Source of the DNA: an uncultured delta proteobacterium
Lineage (GTDB): Bacteria; Desulfobacterota; Binatia; UBA9968
Length of the DNA stretch: 64,000 nt
Direction: 5' to 3'
NCBI GenBank assembly: GCA_963745835.1
Contig: CAVUZH010000022.1
Span: 96,001 to 160,000, forward strand
Below the pieces are notes generated by a model that did not search any database, was not told the origin of the DNA, and saw only the letters and a program-made list of their open reading frames with translations. Positions 2,504 through 33,048 of the stretch are shown one piece after another (the stretch's first letter is position 1; each line of letters begins with the position of its first letter). A program made the position numbers and the translations under genes.

Positions 2504-3358
2504 ATGAGTAAATCAACCCCTAGCGTTGTCCGAATCGATCACGGAGTTATTCCGACCAACGATTTGGGAAAGTCACTGTCTTTTTTTACCGATGTCCTGG
2601 GCGCGCGGTTTAATGCTCTCGTAAATGTCAACCTGCGTGGGCTTAATCGTGAAGTTCCGGAGATGGCATTCTTTACGTTAGCAAACCACCGAGGATTCGG
2701 TCTGTCGCTCGAAGATCAACCGATTCCGCCGACGATTCGTCCTTTAGAAGGACCTGTATGGGGATTCGAGGTCGATGACCGCGGTTTGGCAGGTGTAATC
2801 GCTGCTTTAAACCAGCGAAAGATCGCTTATGAGGGACCCATAGAATATGCGCAGCCTAGTCCGATTGCCGCGTCCCTCTTCATACGAGATATCCATGATT
2901 TCAACTACGAGTTTTCGGTACGGCGTGACGGACAAAAGAGCACTGACGCCGGTCAGGGAGACTTGGGACTTCGTCGCATCAACCATGTCCGACTCGAGGT
3001 GACGGATTTACCGCTTGCGGAGAGTTGGTACCTGGATACGCTCGGTTTGAGTCGAACCGACCCGGTACCAGGGGATCGCCAAGCATCACTGGTGGTAGCG
3101 GAGACGGGGCAGATGTTTATCCTTCATGAAGTGTCGCAGATGACGCAACGAAGCCACTACTGCCGTGGCCCTCACGTGGATGTCAAGGTTCCTATTGGGT
3201 CATTTGAGGCGTTCGTCTCGAAATTAACCAACGTTGAGAAATACTGGGGTCCGTTCGGCAATCGCATCCCGTGGCATGAACCAAATACGCAGACGGTTTA
3301 TTTCTACGATCCATTCGGCAATCGTCTGCAGGTGAGTGAAAATAGACCACATCATTGA
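2504..3358 (+). CDS. Two-domain VOC (glyoxalase/extradiol dioxygenase-fold) protein
   Basis: RIDHGVI...FFTDVLG, INHVRLEVTDL...WYLDTLGL, VYFYDPFGNRLQV; RBS AGGAG. Confidence 0.85.
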   Translation: MSKSTPSVVRIDHGVIPTNDLGKSLSFFTDVLGARFNALVNVNLRGLNREVPEMAFFTLANHRGFGLSLEDQPIPPTIRPLEGPVWGFEVDDRGLAGVIAALNQRKIAYEGPIEYAQPSPIAASLFIRDIHDFNYEFSVRRDGQKSTDAGQGDLGLRRINHVRLEVTDLPLAESWYLDTLGLSRTDPVPGDRQASLVVAETGQMFILHEVSQMTQRSHYCRGPHVDVKVPIGSFEAFVSKLTNVEKYWGPFGNRIPWHEPNTQTVYFYDPFGNRLQVSENRPHH

Positions 3359-8446: not shown

Positions 8447-9064
8447 ATGACATCAAAGCGTATTGGCGTCCTCACTTCCTTGTCGCTGTTACTGATCATC
8501 GCGGGTTGCTCCAATGTCGGCGGCAACGTTTTCGCTGGTCGTAATGCACTACAAACCGGTCGGCCCAAGGATGCAATTGACTACTTGGTGCGGGCAGCCG
8601 ACACCGATCCGAATTACAAGCTTCCCTACCGGATTCGCCCGGGCGTACTGGTATACCTCGGCCGGGCATACCTCGAAACGGGCCAAGACACAGAAGCTCG
8701 ACAAACGTTGGAAAGAGCAGTCAAGCTCGATAAAGACGATCCGCTTGTGCATCTGTACCTTGGGATCGCGCTGTCAAAGACCGGCGAGCGCGAACGCGGT
8801 CGTAAAGAAATCGAAGATGGGCTTCGAGCCATCCACGACACGCTCGCATATATCGCAGAGGATCGCGTCTACGGGTTCTTCTGGGATCCCGCAATGGAAA
8901 TTCGCAATGATATTCGAGCATCGTTAGCCGCCACACTCGATGACACACAGCTCATTATGGCGGGCGAGCGCATCGGTCGTAAGTTCGACGAGGAGATCGA
9001 CCAAGCCCGACGCGATGAAGGACGAATACGCGGAGGCTCCGACAGCAGTGGCGGTGGCAATTGA
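8447..9064 (+). CDS. TPR-repeat lipoprotein
   Basis: Lipobox IIAGC; YLGRAYLETG...A..LERAVKLD and HLYLGIAL TPR patterns; RBS AAGGAG. Confidence 0.85.
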   Translation: MTSKRIGVLTSLSLLLIIAGCSNVGGNVFAGRNALQTGRPKDAIDYLVRAADTDPNYKLPYRIRPGVLVYLGRAYLETGQDTEARQTLERAVKLDKDDPLVHLYLGIALSKTGERERGRKEIEDGLRAIHDTLAYIAEDRVYGFFWDPAMEIRNDIRASLAATLDDTQLIMAGERIGRKFDEEIDQARRDEGRIRGGSDSSGGGN

Positions 9065-9080
9065 TCACCGAGTGGCTCCC

Positions 9081-9194
9081 GGTGTTGGGCTTTCGTATTA
9101 CGTATTGTGATAATCCAACGACCGTTTCCCTCCACTAATGTCAATCAGGTGGCGGGGCCGCGGAGTTTCCCCGGAGCCGCAGCTTAACGACAGA
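9081..9194. repeat. ~113-bp imperfect direct repeat, copy 2
   Basis: Aligns with 6750-6862. Confidence 0.9.
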
Positions 9195-9228
9195 GTAAAG
9201 GGGATCTTTCCGGATTCACTCGGCGACG

Positions 9229-23297: not shown

Positions 23298-23323
23298 TGA
23301 ATCCTCCGTCCTCAGTCGTATCA

Positions 23324-23487
23324 CAGGTTGCTGAAAAAGATCACAACTATGCTTAGAACAGTTAACCTAACCTAAAGCCTAACGCGATTACTGATGCTCA
23401 TTCGAAATCGATTGTGACTGCCGCTTGGCTGACTCGTGACGATAATTCGGCGCGGCCTCATCGCGCTGGATCTTTTTGAGCAACCTG
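23324..23487. mobile_element. MITE-like element with 19-bp terminal inverted repeats
   Basis: CAGGTTGCTGAAAAAGATC ... GATCTTTTTGAGCAACCTG (18/19 match), no ORF. Confidence 0.75.
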
Positions 23488-23934
23488 CAAATAGGGCGAC
23501 GGTTTCAATTCGCACCCCATTTGCTTCATGCTTCCAGGAAAAACAAAGATAGAGTGTTGCCCCAGGAGTGCGCCTCGGATGGGAGCGGGCACATGAACGT
23601 AAAGCTGCGCCGAGGTGGAATCGACTTGGCAAGAAGTTTAATCGGGGTTCTCAACTCCTACTCGTACACGTAACACACTTAGGTTTGAAGGCCATCCTCA
23701 AAGTACAAAGGGCCAATGCTCGCGACTGGAGAGGATCGCTCCTCGGGCGCTCTTTGTGAAAAACTCACCCTTGCCGCAATCCGCTTTATCCTTGACACAA
23801 TTAGTACCTTTCGATAATCAAAACCCCAGCGTAGGTCCGTATCGGTGCGAGACCGTTCGTCGGCCGGGCGCACAGCAAAAAGCAAACGGTTGTAACGATA
23901 TTCCGCCGGCTCCTGAAGTCGTTTAGCGGTAAAA

Positions 23935-29455: not shown

Positions 29456-29983
29456 CTATAACGGTGGCTCGTTCGATTTTCTTTGCAATTCAGAGGACGC
29501 CTCCAGGATTGCATCGATTATCGGTTGATAGCCGGTGCAGCGGCAGATGTTGCCTGAAATGGCGTCGCGCACATCTTCCCGGGTCGGCATCGGATTGTCT
29601 TTCAAAAAGGCCGATGCCGTCATCAGAAAACCGGGTGTGCAGAAGCCGCACTGAAGCGCGTGCCGATTCTGGAAGGCTCGTTGTAAAGGATGCAGCTCAT
29701 CACCTTGGGCGAGGCTCTCGACAGTGCGCAACTCGGCGCCGCCGGCTTGCACCGCGAGTATGAGGCAGGAACGCACTGCTTCACCGTTCATGAGGATCGT
29801 GCAGGCGCCGCATACGCCATGCTCGCAGCCGAGATGAGTGCCGGTGAGATCCAGCTCCTGTCGGATGAAATCCGCCAACGTCATCCTTACTTCGACCAGA
29901 CGTTCATAGGTTCGTCCGTTGGCCGTAACTTTGATGAGTTGCTTTGCGCTCAATCGCTCACCGTATCTTTTGCCTTGGACCAT
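29456..29983 (-). CDS. (2Fe-2S)-binding subunit (CoxS-like)
   Basis: GCEHGVCGACT, QCGFCTPG, NICRCTGY; start could be TTG near 29953. Confidence 0.95.
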   Translation of the reverse strand: MVQGKRYGERLSAKQLIKVTANGRTYERLVEVRMTLADFIRQELDLTGTHLGCEHGVCGACTILMNGEAVRSCLILAVQAGGAELRTVESLAQGDELHPLQRAFQNRHALQCGFCTPGFLMTASAFLKDNPMPTREDVRDAISGNICRCTGYQPIIDAILEASSELQRKSNEPPL

Positions 29984-30834
29984 GCCGATTGCAGTGCCCG
30001 GCGCACCAACACGCCACCGACTTCCTTGCGGTAAGCAGCCGAAGCGTGAACATCCGAATCGGGGTCAAGTTCTTCGGCGACGACTCTGCTCAGCTCGCCT
30101 AAAAGCGCCTCGTCGATGCGGCGTTCGTTCAAGAGCGCTTCAGCGCGTTCCATCCTTTGGGGTTTGCCGCCCACGCCGAACATAACGATGCGAGCATTTT
30201 GTAAAATATCTGCGCCGTCCAATGCAGCCCGCAAGGCGACTCCGGCGAGGGCGAAATCACCTTTTCGCCGCGCGATCTCGAGGACGGCCCAGGCTTCGTC
30301 TGGGCGCCATTTGGGCAAACGAATTTCCGTGAGCAACTCCCCTGGCCGGCAGGCGGTGGCCAAGTACCCGAGAAAAAAATCCGCCGCCGCAACCAGACGC
30401 GCGCCCGACTTGCTTCTCAACAAGAACTCGCCGCCGAGGAGCAGGCTCACCGCCGGCAGCTCGGCCGCTGGATCCGCATGAACCAAACTACCGCCAATGG
30501 TTCCCCGGTTGCGAATCTGAAAGTGGCCAATAAGCGGCATCGCCGCGGCGAGCATCGGATTTTGCTCCTGAATAATCGTGGAGCGCTCCAGGGTCCGCTG
30601 GCGCGCCAGCGCGCCGATCGTCAGGCCGCCGTCCGGCGCAGTTGAGATCGCATCGAGATTGCGCAAACGGTTAATATCGATAATCACGCGTGGCCGCGCC
30701 AAGCGTAGGTTGATTAGCGGCATGAGACTCTGCCCGCCGGCAAGGATCTTCGCCTCATCGCCATAGCGCTCGAGCAGATCCAAGGCTTCTGGCAACTCCA
30801 ACGGCGCATAGTATTCAAAAGGGGCCGGTTTCAT
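29950..30834 (-). CDS. FAD-binding subunit (CoxM-like)
   Basis: MKPAPFEY, LAGGQSL, QIRNRGTIGGS, HADPAAE. Confidence 0.95.
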   Translation of the reverse strand: MKPAPFEYYAPLELPEALDLLERYGDEAKILAGGQSLMPLINLRLARPRVIIDINRLRNLDAISTAPDGGLTIGALARQRTLERSTIIQEQNPMLAAAMPLIGHFQIRNRGTIGGSLVHADPAAELPAVSLLLGGEFLLRSKSGARLVAAADFFLGYLATACRPGELLTEIRLPKWRPDEAWAVLEIARRKGDFALAGVALRAALDGADILQNARIVMFGVGGKPQRMERAEALLNERRIDEALLGELSRVVAEELDPDSDVHASAAYRKEVGGVLVRRALQSAWSKAKDTVSD

Positions 30835-30881
30835 TGGCTGTCATCGACCAGATATCAAACTCGGCGCTAACGGCAAATAAG
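30825..30881. repeat. 57-bp direct repeat, left of C-depleted insert
   Basis: CCGGTTTCATTGGCTGTCATCGACCAGATATCAAACTCGGCGCTAACGGCAAATAAG. Confidence 0.97.
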
Positions 30882-31866
30882 GTTTTTTTTTTGTTTTGTT
30901 TTGTGTTTTTTTTTTTTTTGTGTTTATTGTTGAGTTTGTTTTTTTATTTGTTTTGTATTTAGTATGGTTGTTTTTTAGTGTTTTGTTTTTTTTTTTTTTG
31001 GAGTTTGGTAGGAGTTTAGGTTTTTTTTTTTGATTGTTTTTTATTTTATGTATTTTGTTTATTGGTTTTATTAGTAGGTTAGGTGTTGGTAGTATTGTTA
31101 GATTTATTAATGTTTTAAAGATTATATGATGTTGTTGTTGGATTGGTATATAGTTAATTTGGAGTTTTGTGATAATTTTTGGTATGTTGTTGGTAATGTT
31201 GTTGAGTGTGGAGTGTGGAAAGGTGGTATGAGAGTTGGGATTGTTGTATTTGTGAGTTATTGTATCTATTATCTTTATGATAGTTTTGAAGGATTTTTTG
31301 TTGTTGAGAATTAGGATGTTATATAAGGTGTGAGGTAGTGGTGAAGGATTGGTAAGGGAGATTGAAGGTGGTGGAGGAGTAGGTAAGTGAGGTAATGTAG
31401 CTAGAAGGTGTGGAGAGTGTTGTTGTTGTAAAAGGTTGGTTTAGTGAAATTTTGTTTAATTAAGATTATGGGATGATTGATATTTTTAGTTTGGAAGGTG
31501 ATTTATATGAGAGTGTGATGGAATTTTTGATAAATTTTTGGTAACAAGTTGTAGTTGGAGAGATTATTATAATAGAAGATTATTATAAATGGAAAGAATG
31601 TAAAAGAGATGTAAATGATTTTTTTTAGTAAAATTAGTTGAAAGAAATGATTTAATAATTAAGAGAGATATATGTGTATATTGTTAAAGAAGAATATATA
31701 AAATAGTTTTTAGTAAGTTTTGTTAAGTGATGATATGTTTTTATAATTAAATTTTAAATTTTGAAATGAAATTATTGAATTGATATGTGATTTTATGATA
31801 TATTAAATTTATAATTAAAATAATTAGTGATAAATTAGATATAGAAATATAAAGAGTATTTTTTGT
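30882..31866 (+). other. Cytosine-depleted ~985-bp insert carrying a degraded TylF/MycF-family O-methyltransferase
   Basis: Only 4 C on + strand by manual count; reads GNVVECGVWKGGM, YLYDSFEG, VKGWFSE, LEGDLYESV, IIIEDY. Confidence 0.8.
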
Positions 31867-31924
31867 CCGGTTTCATTGGCTGTCATCGACCAGATATCAA
31901 ACTCGGCGCTAACCGGCAAATAAG
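31867..31924. repeat. 58-bp direct repeat, right of C-depleted insert
   Basis: Identical to 30825-30881 except one extra C (AACCGG vs AACGG). Confidence 0.97.
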
Positions 31925-32049
31925 CGCTTCAACCGCAACACTCTAATGAATTCTCCTGAGAACCCTCGGCTCATTCTTCGAGAAACTCAGCAGGAGCATC
32001 AATACATCCTGCTTGAAAGATGGCGCCGCCTCGTCCTATGCTCACGGGC

Positions 32050-33048
32050 ATGGCGGAGAAAAAAACAACTTTCGGACTCACCTTGTCGAACCGAGCACTG
32101 GTTACCAGAGGAACACAACCCAAGGACATGATCGACATGGCGGTGCAGGCCGAGAACAGCGGCGCGATCGATGCTATCTGGGTCGGCGACAGCATTCTTA
32201 GCAAGCCTCGTTTGGAATGCATTCCACTGCTAGGCGCGATAGCCGCGCGGACTTCAACTGTTAAACTTGGCGTAGCGTGCATGGCCACCATCGCGCAGCG
32301 TAATCCCGTGCTGCTTGCGTTGCAGTGGGCGAGCCTGGATGTCTTATCGGGCGGGCGCACATGGCTCGCCGCCTGCATGGGATACCCGGCGAGTCAGCAC
32401 CCGATGGCGGCCAAGGAACTTGAGGTAATGGGCGTCGAGAGCAAGGAGCGGCCGGCGCGATTGGAAGAAATGATCCAAGCCCTGCGAGTGCTCTGGTCGG
32501 ACGAACATGCCAGCTTCAAGGGTAAGTACTATTCGTTCCAAGATGTAAATCTCCTGCCCAAACCGGCGCAACAGCCTTGCCCGATCTACATCGCCGGCAC
32601 ACCGCGATCCAATCAGATCGGCGATAGTGGACGTGGAGCGTTCGTTGCGGAGAATCGCCCGATTCGCCGACGGCTGGATGACCAATCAGATCGAGCTCGA
32701 AAGGTTTAGAGATTACGTCGGGCGATTGCGTAGTATGTTGTTGGAAGAGGGACGCGACCCGAATGGCTTCAAGACCGTTTTATATTACGGCATCTCGGTC
32801 AATGCCGACTGCGATCAGGCGTTTCGCGAAGCAAAAACTTTTCTCGATGCCTATTATCAAAAAGACTTTTCGCGCCAGGGCGTTGAAATTTGGAACGCCT
32901 GCGGGCCTGTGAGACCACTGCGTTAAATGTGTAGAGTGGATTTATCGAGGCAGGAGTCGACCACGTCACCATTCGCCCGATCGGTAACGATTTAAGTGAG
33001 CAGCTTCGTATCTACTTGGAAGAGGTTCTTCCGGCCTTACATTCGTAA
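32050..33048 (+). pseudogene. LLM-class oxidoreductase with three +1 frameshifts (pseudogene or consensus errors)
   Basis: WVGDSILSKPRLE, WASLDVLSGGR; removing single bases near 32630, 32912 and 32937 restores ...RFADGW...GPVDHCVKCVEGFIEAGVDHVTIRP...EEVLPALHS*. Confidence 0.8.

Follow-up and report, generated by a model that had tools for sequence, protein, structure and literature searches.

The window analysed here is a 64-kb stretch of one contig from the assembly of an uncultured bacterium of the class Binatia (assembly G000, 25 contigs), and it holds an insert at 30882-31866 that is almost devoid of cytosine. By base count on the plus strand, its 985 nt consist of T470, A274, G237 and C4, in agreement with the C-poor insert reported in a preliminary description of this DNA. 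The four remaining C stand at positions 31266, 31273, 31401 and 31545 and leave C-free runs of 391, 321, 143 and 127 nt; the longest such run in the rest of the 64-kb window is 37 nt. The C content of the whole window is 26.8% and the GC skew over the block is +0.93 to +1.0.

The block is enclosed by two direct repeats, copy 1 at 30825..30881 (57 nt) and copy 2 at 31867..31924 (58 nt), which share 47 exact bases, then differ by one extra C in copy 2 and end on 10 identical bases. Copy 1 is contiguous with an intact coxM-like gene for a FAD-binding subunit (FAD_binding_5 and CO_deh_flav_C; 29950..30834, minus strand), whose ATG and first codons lie inside the repeat, just as the near-perfect 57/58-bp duplication over the coxM-like start codon had first been described. 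The C missing from copy 1 (at 30871, 11 nt before the insert) is present in copy 2, in four relatives and in metagenome contigs, and copy 2 is the version that matches these relatives and contigs. Downstream of the insert, a luciferase-like monooxygenase gene (32020..32926, plus strand) is broken by three 1-nt insertions in this region (32632, 32915/6 and 32937) that are specific to this assembly. A cluster of indels at 23343-23711, seen against the same-genus genome G006, was considered as read error and set aside; it lies in an intergenic region and gives no evidence of such error.

Direct copies of 57 and 58 nt at both ends are what a target-site duplication of transposons and insertion sequences would look like. 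The other marks of an insertion sequence are missing: no inverted repeats were found in 30000-33000, no transposase or recombinase is present at the insert, where the TylF remnant described below is the sole coding content, and no further copies were found in any of the 25 contigs, in either four-letter or three-letter space. To our knowledge, a 57-bp target duplication is also far longer than those of known transposons.

A TylF methyltransferase ghost

The insert copies, in collinear order, a TylF methyltransferase cassette whose four-letter form is found in a genome of the same genus (G005) and in one metagenome contig. It takes in a single gene along with its flanks, starting 95 nt upstream and stopping ~25 nt short of the next gene. 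The left end (30882..30963, plus strand) is the ghost of the ~95 nt ahead of the TylF start in the donor; T has taken the place of A and C there, which leaves almost only T and G. The ghost reading frame follows on the plus strand at 30964..31740, with its ATG at 30964 and an approximate end, and the right end (31741..31866, plus strand) is an A/T-rich, weakly aligned ghost of the donor's downstream intergenic region.

Translated with X at stops, 31416-31700 matches the Pfam TylF family (PF05711) with an E-value of 1.5e-15 and a score of 57.6 bits, where the cut-off is 23, and 31102-31440 reaches an E-value of 0.009 and 15.7 bits, under that cut-off; the natural G005 protein gives 9e-40. Of the TylF ghost first read from the sequence, the C-terminal part passes the family threshold and the N-terminal part falls short of it. 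About 20 in-frame stops interrupt the ghost (13 in 30883-31380 and 10 in 31332-31700, in the respective frames), next to a deletion of 3 nt near 31238 and one of 1 nt near 31331, the latter of which shifts the reading frame. The underlying gene belongs to the same family as the TylF/MycF/NovP-type SAM-dependent O-methyltransferases (PF05711), but in contrast to these the window copy is not a gene; with its stops and frame shift it has no protein-capable ORF and is a ghost rather than a PF05711 member.

The donor is ~15% distant from the G005 and L094 copies, which is comparable to the 85% identity between G000 and G005 in syntenic flanks. The cassette is one of the genus itself, which alters the earlier proposal of a read from another organism: the donor is not a distant one. 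In G005 the cassette adjoins tRNA-Leu(CAG) and lies inside ~2 kb that is absent from G000 at the syntenic position (C3:1002613-1002768). No four-letter copy of the donor was found in the G000 assembly, which is 97.1% complete. A three-letter search for the unconverted donor, suggested earlier as a check, found none either: with C>T on both strands of the 25 contigs it returned only the block, its own complement and low-complexity matches, and the best match outside the T-rich left end scored 74 bits. The TylF-like genes of G000 itself (on C11 and C3) were rejected as donors at only 33-34% identity. With the ghost as query, a word-based search of longer proteins returned nothing, and HMMER over 1.84 billion representatives returned distant TylF relatives only (best 41% identity, E 1.8e-17), missing the close donor.

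Substitution spectrum

At the 118 conserved donor C sites the insert carries T in 77 cases, A in 30 and G in 5, while 2 sites are deleted and 4 kept. The change is graded along the block: in the alignment to the natural G005 gene, every 100 nt of 30900-31199 show 23-26 C>T against 0-1 C>A, and those of 31400-31699 show 9-11 C>T against 9-15 C>A, so that the T-to-A gradient from left to right, noted from the letters alone, is confirmed. The insert ends lose A or G besides C, and A>T at the left end amounts to 16/22 in the 30900s and 10 of 24 sites at 30960-31059. Each of the four surviving C occupies a position that is C in the donor, and none of 416 non-C sites has turned to C, hence nothing in the block has changed since its conversion. 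The non-C bases are accurately read and diverge from relatives by 15.3% at first, 5.8% at second and 26.4% at third codon positions, a purifying-selection pattern, so the block is not noise.

The choice between T and A follows position, with no dependence on the neighbouring bases (n = 75), which leaves modified bases unsupported as the possible cause raised in the preliminary description. Pure deamination or bisulfite treatment had been called a misfit there, and rightly, given that 30 of the 118 conserved C sites became A. Deaminases of the APOBEC or DddA type would produce C>T only, with a preferred neighbour and at a fraction of sites, which is not what is seen here. Hypermutation by APOBEC-type enzymes on single-stranded DNA, or by reverse transcription from a biased dNTP pool, affects a fraction of sites, has a context preference and yields transitions. 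The insert is similar in being strand-coordinated and limited to one base in one stretch, but differs in that ~97% of sites are changed, context plays no part and one change in four is a transversion. The insert resembles bisulfite or enzymatic C-to-U conversion in having one strand nearly C-free, with few C kept and other bases intact. Conversion gives C>T only, whereas in the insert A stands at 25% of conserved C sites, A or G is lost at the ends as well, and A>T is present. Bit-level corruption of a 2-bit packed sequence was also considered and rejected, given that setting one bit would turn A into G no less often than C into T and the observed rates are 17/130 for A>G and 107/118 for C>T/A.

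Empty sites and independent data

Two genomes of the same genus as G000 carry the empty site, with one repeat copy and without the insert (G006, C11:2148-2757 and 2700-3282; G004, C151:8080-8684 and 8627-9209). In metagenome contigs from two runs of two studies, 30824 is directly followed by 31867, with 1042 nt left out (X5 record 16, 1517 nt; X9 record 22, 556 nt, 1 mismatch). Near-identical strains elsewhere carry the empty site, and the view that the block is foreign to its site is borne out by both the two genomes and the two metagenome studies.

The insert does not occur in independent data from the same strain or nearly identical ones. None of the 20 partly matching sequencing runs holds half of the query words; the best word share is 0.45, and the flanks alone make up 54% of the query. 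A 50-mer from the ghost had 0 matches in genome contigs and 0 in metagenome contigs (two collections). Four runs from other samples gave no coverage of the insert, although an uncovered part proves nothing by itself. In X2, depths of 0.62 and 0.8 in two insert bins, with an unrelated AT-rich loose end, were taken as chance low-complexity contigs.

Similar blocks in this and other assemblies

A scan of the 25 contigs (7.28 Mb) found only one other such block, C25:65278-66117, a low-complexity sequence of A500 G267 T71 C2 inside a stretch of ~1.19 kb that is absent from G004. No donor could be assigned to it: its alignment to the neighbouring G006 homologue was no better than shuffles outside a four-letter tail, and a class-wide search returned other junk only.

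With the two G000 blocks as queries over 401 genomes of the class, similar junk was found only in assemblies of 4 to 90 contigs. G239 has an A/G-only block of 518 nt between noisy direct repeats of ~250-290 nt. In G101 the junk comprises C-free three-letter stretches, poly-T runs of 215-290 nt and poly-A, and the flank is re-read repeatedly in degraded form. Poly-T extends over 1877 nt in G385 and about 1700 nt in G252, G174 has poly-G, poly-A and (CA)n at a contig start, and G181 and G346 have poly-A. The same kind of block recurs in unrelated places and in further assemblies of this type (C25, G101, G239, G385, G252, G174 and G181). All multi-letter blocks (two in G000, and those in G239 and G101) are C-free on the contig plus strand and none is G-free; the homopolymer junk elsewhere consists of T, A and G, so the strand argument comes from four assemblies only.

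The junk in G101, G239, G385, G252 and G174 resembles the insert in its size of 0.5-2 kb, its C-free plus strand and its pull towards T or A, and has in common with it a flank that is read twice with small errors and an assembly of few contigs. The difference is that the insert carries an accurately read foreign gene, whereas the other assemblies have junk or degraded copies of the local flank only. No second example of a recognisable foreign gene was found inside the junk of other assemblies, and the three-letter junk of G101 yielded neither a donor nor a gene ghost.

Discussion

We consider the insert to be a technical artefact of what is probably a long-read type of assembly, and not part of the chromosome, with a probability of about 80%. 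A chimeric long read was favoured in the preliminary description, and a chimeric long-read or assembly artefact is the best reading because two genomes of the genus and metagenome contigs from two studies have the empty site, because the insert is in no other public data searched, because G000 has a second C-free block, and because C-free junk, kilobase poly-T and noisy re-read duplications occur in other few-contig assemblies of the class. The errors beside the junk, namely the C missing from copy 1 and the three 1-nt insertions, count in the same direction, as do the C-free plus strand of all multi-letter blocks and the lack of any change in the insert after its conversion.

In such an artefact, ~1 kb from a single molecule of the TylF cassette, belonging either to this lineage or to a sister strain that occurs with it, would have entered the contig and been placed between two readings of the same 57 bases, under a decoding bias that never emitted C and leaned first to T and, by the end, to A. 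Its origin may lie in one read or in a consensus step. Possibly a read was interrupted, another short molecule was read under shifted signal, and reading resumed a few dozen bases back; the overhang of a chimeric read could also have been garbled in the consensus step.

Several observations count against an artefact: the accurate non-C bases, a context-free choice of T or A that is unlike the k-mer-dependent error expected of a basecaller, a non-local gene without a four-letter copy in G000, and the missing second example of a foreign gene in other assemblies. We know of no described artefact that cleanly drops one base. A literature search outside subscription journals found neither a one-base-free artefact nor such a bacterial hypermutation. 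Basecalling-induced repeat errors are reported for nanopore telomere reads (PMC9414165) and share with the insert a systematic strand-specific base replacement instead of random error. As reported, the telomere case concerns short tandem repeats with fixed miscalls, whereas the insert is unique coding sequence with the loss of one base and a positional gradient.

It is unlikely, though the best of the alternatives, that the insertion is real and only the loss of C technical. A four-letter TylF cassette would then have been captured upstream of coxM with a 57-bp duplication, and a consensus or polishing step would have garbled the thinly covered stretch. The match of the insert to a single gene plus its flanks agrees with this, as does the place of the G005 cassette in a strain-variable stretch beside tRNA-Leu(CAG) that is missing in G000; the distance of the donor from G005 and L094 fits the G000 lineage, and the C-free plus strand of all blocks suggests a contig-level step. 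However, the site has no recombinase, transposase or inverted repeats in 30000-33000, the 57-bp duplication is far above the transposon lengths mentioned above, the layout of repeat, junk and repeat is also seen in G239 with pure junk inside, and near-identical strains elsewhere have the empty site.

An in vivo event is more doubtful still. One strand of the cassette would have been made without dCTP, depleted for example in phage defence or infection, by an error-prone polymerase, or fully C-deaminated single-stranded DNA would have been copied with abasic-site bypass, and fixation at a staggered break would have given the 57-bp duplication. The change is C-specific, on one strand and confined to the insert, the duplication resembles a target-site duplication, and a position-dependent, context-free choice of T or A is what a drifting nucleotide pool would give. 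The usual mispair order opposite template G is T > A > G, which the counts of T 77 > A 30 > G 5 match. Nevertheless, the kilobase poly-T runs, A/G-only blocks and stuttered re-reads in this and other few-contig assemblies form one class of object with the insert and cannot have a biological origin, and this recurrence in other assemblies makes the real hypermutated insertion, offered earlier as the alternative, improbable. The insert is also missing from every other data set searched and the block has no later mutation, A to T on the left and G or T to A on the right are unexplained by C loss alone, and we know of no conversion of ~97% over 1 kb in cells. Just as improbable is the specific form in which the insert is real DNA, a cassette of a neighbouring lineage synthesised in a dCTP-emptied cell, with the C-less strand fixed at a staggered break upstream of coxM. 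A phage-defence or phage function of the dCTP-deaminase or dCTPase type would be an example of the emptying agent, and an error-prone polymerase would set T, then increasingly A, opposite every template G.

Least probable of all is that a molecule from another library, converted chemically or by enzymes (bisulfite or EM-seq type), contaminated the reads and was joined in. It would give a three-letter sequence on one strand with few unconverted C (4/118) but does not account for the 30/118 C sites turned to A with their gradient, the A to T changes at the left end (10/24 sites at 30960-31059), a donor gene from an uncultured genus that is no usual methylome subject, or the flanking duplication and the A/G-only C25 block.

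As biology, the C-free ghost is most likely without importance, being an error in a public assembly. Blocks with one base missing and duplicated flanks can pass for foreign DNA, a mobile element or the result of hypermutation; they recur in several few-contig assemblies of this soil-bacterial class, and a screen for 150-300-nt windows without one base would flag them. If the insert were backed by raw reads, it would represent a striking new mutational process, and if it came from synthesis in a dCTP-emptied cell, it would document, for the first time in nature, kilobase-scale DNA synthesis that lacked one nucleotide.

Results

The block at window positions 30882-31866 (985 nt) consists of 470 T, 274 A, 237 G and 4 C, with a GC skew of about +1 throughout. 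Its C-free runs measure 391, 321, 143 and 127 nt, against a longest run of 37 nt in the rest of the window. It is bordered by two copies of a direct repeat, on the left at 30825-30881 (copy 1) and on the right at 31867-31924 (copy 2), which agree over 47 bases and, after an additional C in copy 2, over 10 more. The repeat spans the ATG and the opening codons of a gene on the minus strand that encodes the FAD-binding subunit of a CoxLMS-type molybdenum hydroxylase (Pfam FAD_binding_5 and CO_deh_flav_C), with the Fer2_2 and MoCoBD subunits behind it. Translated with X at stops, positions 31416-31700 match the Pfam TylF methyltransferase family (E = 1.5e-15, 57.6 bits), and 31102-31440, in a different reading frame, reach 15.7 bits, which is under the cut-off. 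The C-poor block, the repeats and the TylF likeness reported in the preliminary description are all borne out by the base counts, the repeat alignment and Pfam.

The site is empty in two same-genus genomes, in which the flanks overlap by 58 nt (G006 contig C11 and G004 contig C151). Twenty public sequencing runs from nine studies match part of a query of 2151 nt, 54% of which is flank; the largest share of query words in any one run is 0.45, less than half. Among four runs from four studies compared in detail, a contig from X5 (1517 nt, 7 mismatches) and one from X9 (556 nt, 1 mismatch) join 30824 to 31867 with a single repeat copy, and depth within the block is zero in X1, X5 and X9. Run X2 has depths of 0.62 and 0.8 in two bins of the block, together with a loose end that is AT-rich and unrelated. 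A 50-mer from the block has no exact match in collections of genome or metagenome contigs, from which the window's own record may be excluded. On the compared data the insert can be dismissed as a feature of the species, a finding that does not extend to the sampled strain.

No donor was found when the complete 7.28-Mb assembly was searched on both strands in C-to-T three-letter form; the assembly's native TylF-like genes are just 33-34% identical to the garbled gene (the ghost). Comparison of the region with 31 relatives showed the block interior to match weakly at the DNA level (66-68%) in one same-genus genome, G005, in which a TylF gene of normal four-letter form (Pfam TylF, E = 9e-40) is split across the end of one contig and the start of another. 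None of our conclusions depends on two unpublished genomes in this comparison, G012 and G018. The entire insert aligns collinearly with this locus, from about 95 nt upstream through the reading frame and into the downstream spacer, ending about 25 nt short of the next gene. A second natural relative lies on metagenome contig L094, and its protein is 93% identical to that of G005. Other than these known relatives, the best match among the 401 genomes sampled from the class is 50% identical, and identity does not exceed 50% in 58 loci from a species-representative collection once G005's own two contigs are set aside, or in 80 metagenome loci once L094 is set aside.

The TylF cassette of G005 adjoins tRNA-Leu(CAG). 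In the studied assembly this tRNA gene (C3:1002613-1002699) is separated by only 66 nt from the gene that is 3' of TylF in G005, so there is no four-letter TylF copy at the syntenic place. The assembly (97.1% complete, 9.33% contaminated) has no four-letter copy of the block's non-local gene, and a real TylF cassette molecule must have been sequenced, belonging to this strain or to a co-sampled sister strain. In G005 the gene occupies part of a stretch of about 2 kb, bounded by tRNA-Leu(CAG) and a response-regulator gene (loci L010, G005:C203:6000-7706, and L009, G005:C392:1-3000), which also contains short repeats of a kind present at several places in the studied assembly. Set against the 66 nt in the latter (C3:1002514-1004978), it is a small island, variable between strains, at a tRNA gene.

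Substitutions were scored over the core 31080-31660 at sites where G005 and L094 agree. The 118 donor C sites read as T (77), A (30), G (5), deleted (2) or kept (4), while 353 of 416 non-C sites are unchanged and none turned to C. The 63 non-C differences fall on codon positions 1, 2 and 3 at 15.3%, 5.8% and 26.4%, the same ranking as in the natural pair of G005 and L094 (4.9%, 2.3% and 13.2%), so these differences reflect the ordinary divergence seen in functional orthologues at a distance of about 15%, which also means that the block's A, G and T are accurate reads. This distance resembles the 85% identity between the studied assembly and G005 in syntenic flanks. Each of the four retained C falls on a donor C, so there is no sign of later mutation. 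The proposed T-rich to A-rich gradient, for which plain deamination cannot account, is evident in the counts per 100 nt: 23-26 C>T and 0-1 C>A across 30900-31199, and 9-11 C>T and 9-15 C>A across 31400-31699. In the mixed zone (n = 75) the choice between T and A is independent of the preceding and following base. On the far left A also became T, at 16 of the 22 sites in the 30900s and at 10 of the 24 conserved A sites between 30960 and 31059, and on the far right G and T became A.

Further errors lie beside the block. Repeat copy 1 is without a C that copy 2, relatives and metagenome contigs carry. A luciferase-like monooxygenase gene (32020-32926) is broken 0.8-1.1 kb right of the block by three 1-nt insertions (32632, 32915/6 and 32937) absent from three or four relatives (G001, G003, G004 and G006); they reflect either errors of the assembly or a recent pseudogene. 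The cox genes to the left are free of such indels over 3.7 kb. The last codons of a histidine-kinase gene hold a paired insertion and deletion (33125 and 33153). Elsewhere, about 20 small insertions and a number of larger gaps separate the intergenic stretch 23300-23760 from that of G006 (82% identity, 11% gaps), between genes 93-95% identical to G006; the stretch is a fast-evolving spacer or regulatory region.

The studied assembly has one other such block and nothing else unusual. It is low-complexity (C25:65278-66117, 840 nt; A 500, G 267, T 71, C 2) and lies within about 1.19 kb of intergenic DNA missing from G004, whose spacer is 12 nt (locus L011, about 1479-2318); neither a flanking direct repeat nor, in a search including the class genomes, a donor was found. 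Just left of it, an element of about 60 nt (L011 1425-1488, C25:65224-65287) recurs at many loci in each of the eight genus genomes searched, and looks like a REP-like intergenic repeat.

With both blocks as queries over the 401 genomes, related junk was found in other assemblies that have few contigs, between 4 and 90. In G239, 518 nt made up of A and G only lie between two noisy flank copies of about 250-290 nt (L178, C4:672025-675480). G101 (L183/L193, C5:146849-151830; L180, C5:157085-160222) has C-free three-letter stretches, runs of poly-T (215-290 nt) and poly-A (about 90 nt), repeated flank pieces and tandemly copied local sequence (about 175 nt) that loses C stepwise, then T and G, to A. 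Poly-T runs reach 1877 nt in G385 (L179, C35) and about 1700 nt in G252 (L194, C5), poly-A runs occur in G181 (L195, C15) and G346, and a G174 contig starts with poly-G, poly-A and (CA)n (L196, C10:1-1935). Two matches in assemblies of 170 and 240 contigs have no base-free stretch. Homopolymers of kilobase length and stuttered re-reads have no biological origin, and the ghost shares with the other junk a pull towards T or A, the loss of C first and a flank read twice. In all multi-letter junk (the studied assembly twice, G239 and G101) C is missing on the contig plus strand and G in none, a strand pattern from four assemblies only; homopolymer junk elsewhere is T, A and G. Real DNA inserted at random would be expected in both orientations, and we therefore count this bias towards a technical origin.

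Discussion

The C-free TylF ghost is most likely a technical artefact and not a real feature, given the second C-free block in the same assembly, the junk in other few-contig assemblies, the loss of C from one strand and the adjacent assembly-specific errors. The chimeric long-read artefact favored in the preliminary description is largely right, except that the donor is the gene of a close relative and not of a distant organism, and that nothing points to modified bases as the cause. An interrupted read may have taken up another short molecule under an off-scale, drifting signal before picking up again a few dozen bases earlier; or the assembler may have kept the overhang of a chimeric read, which the consensus step would have garbled. 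We know of no described artefact that strips one base and leaves the others accurate, and the portions of the literature covered by our search hold no account of one.

A real four-letter insertion, garbled in its letters only, would fit a cassette that is strain-variable and beside a tRNA gene in G005, but it is unlikely, with neither recombinase nor inverted repeats, and G239 has the same repeat-junk-repeat layout around pure junk. We give still less credence to real C-less synthesis or total deamination, which accounts for the restriction to one strand, the order T > A > G of the replacements and their independence of context but explains neither the companion junk nor why A, G and T, too, disappear at the block ends. 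A bisulfite-type contaminant, the least probable origin, fails on both the share of C>A and the flanking duplication. In the other few-contig assemblies, the poly-T, poly-A, poly-G, (CA)n and A/G-only blocks and the degraded re-reads are probably errors in public genomes.
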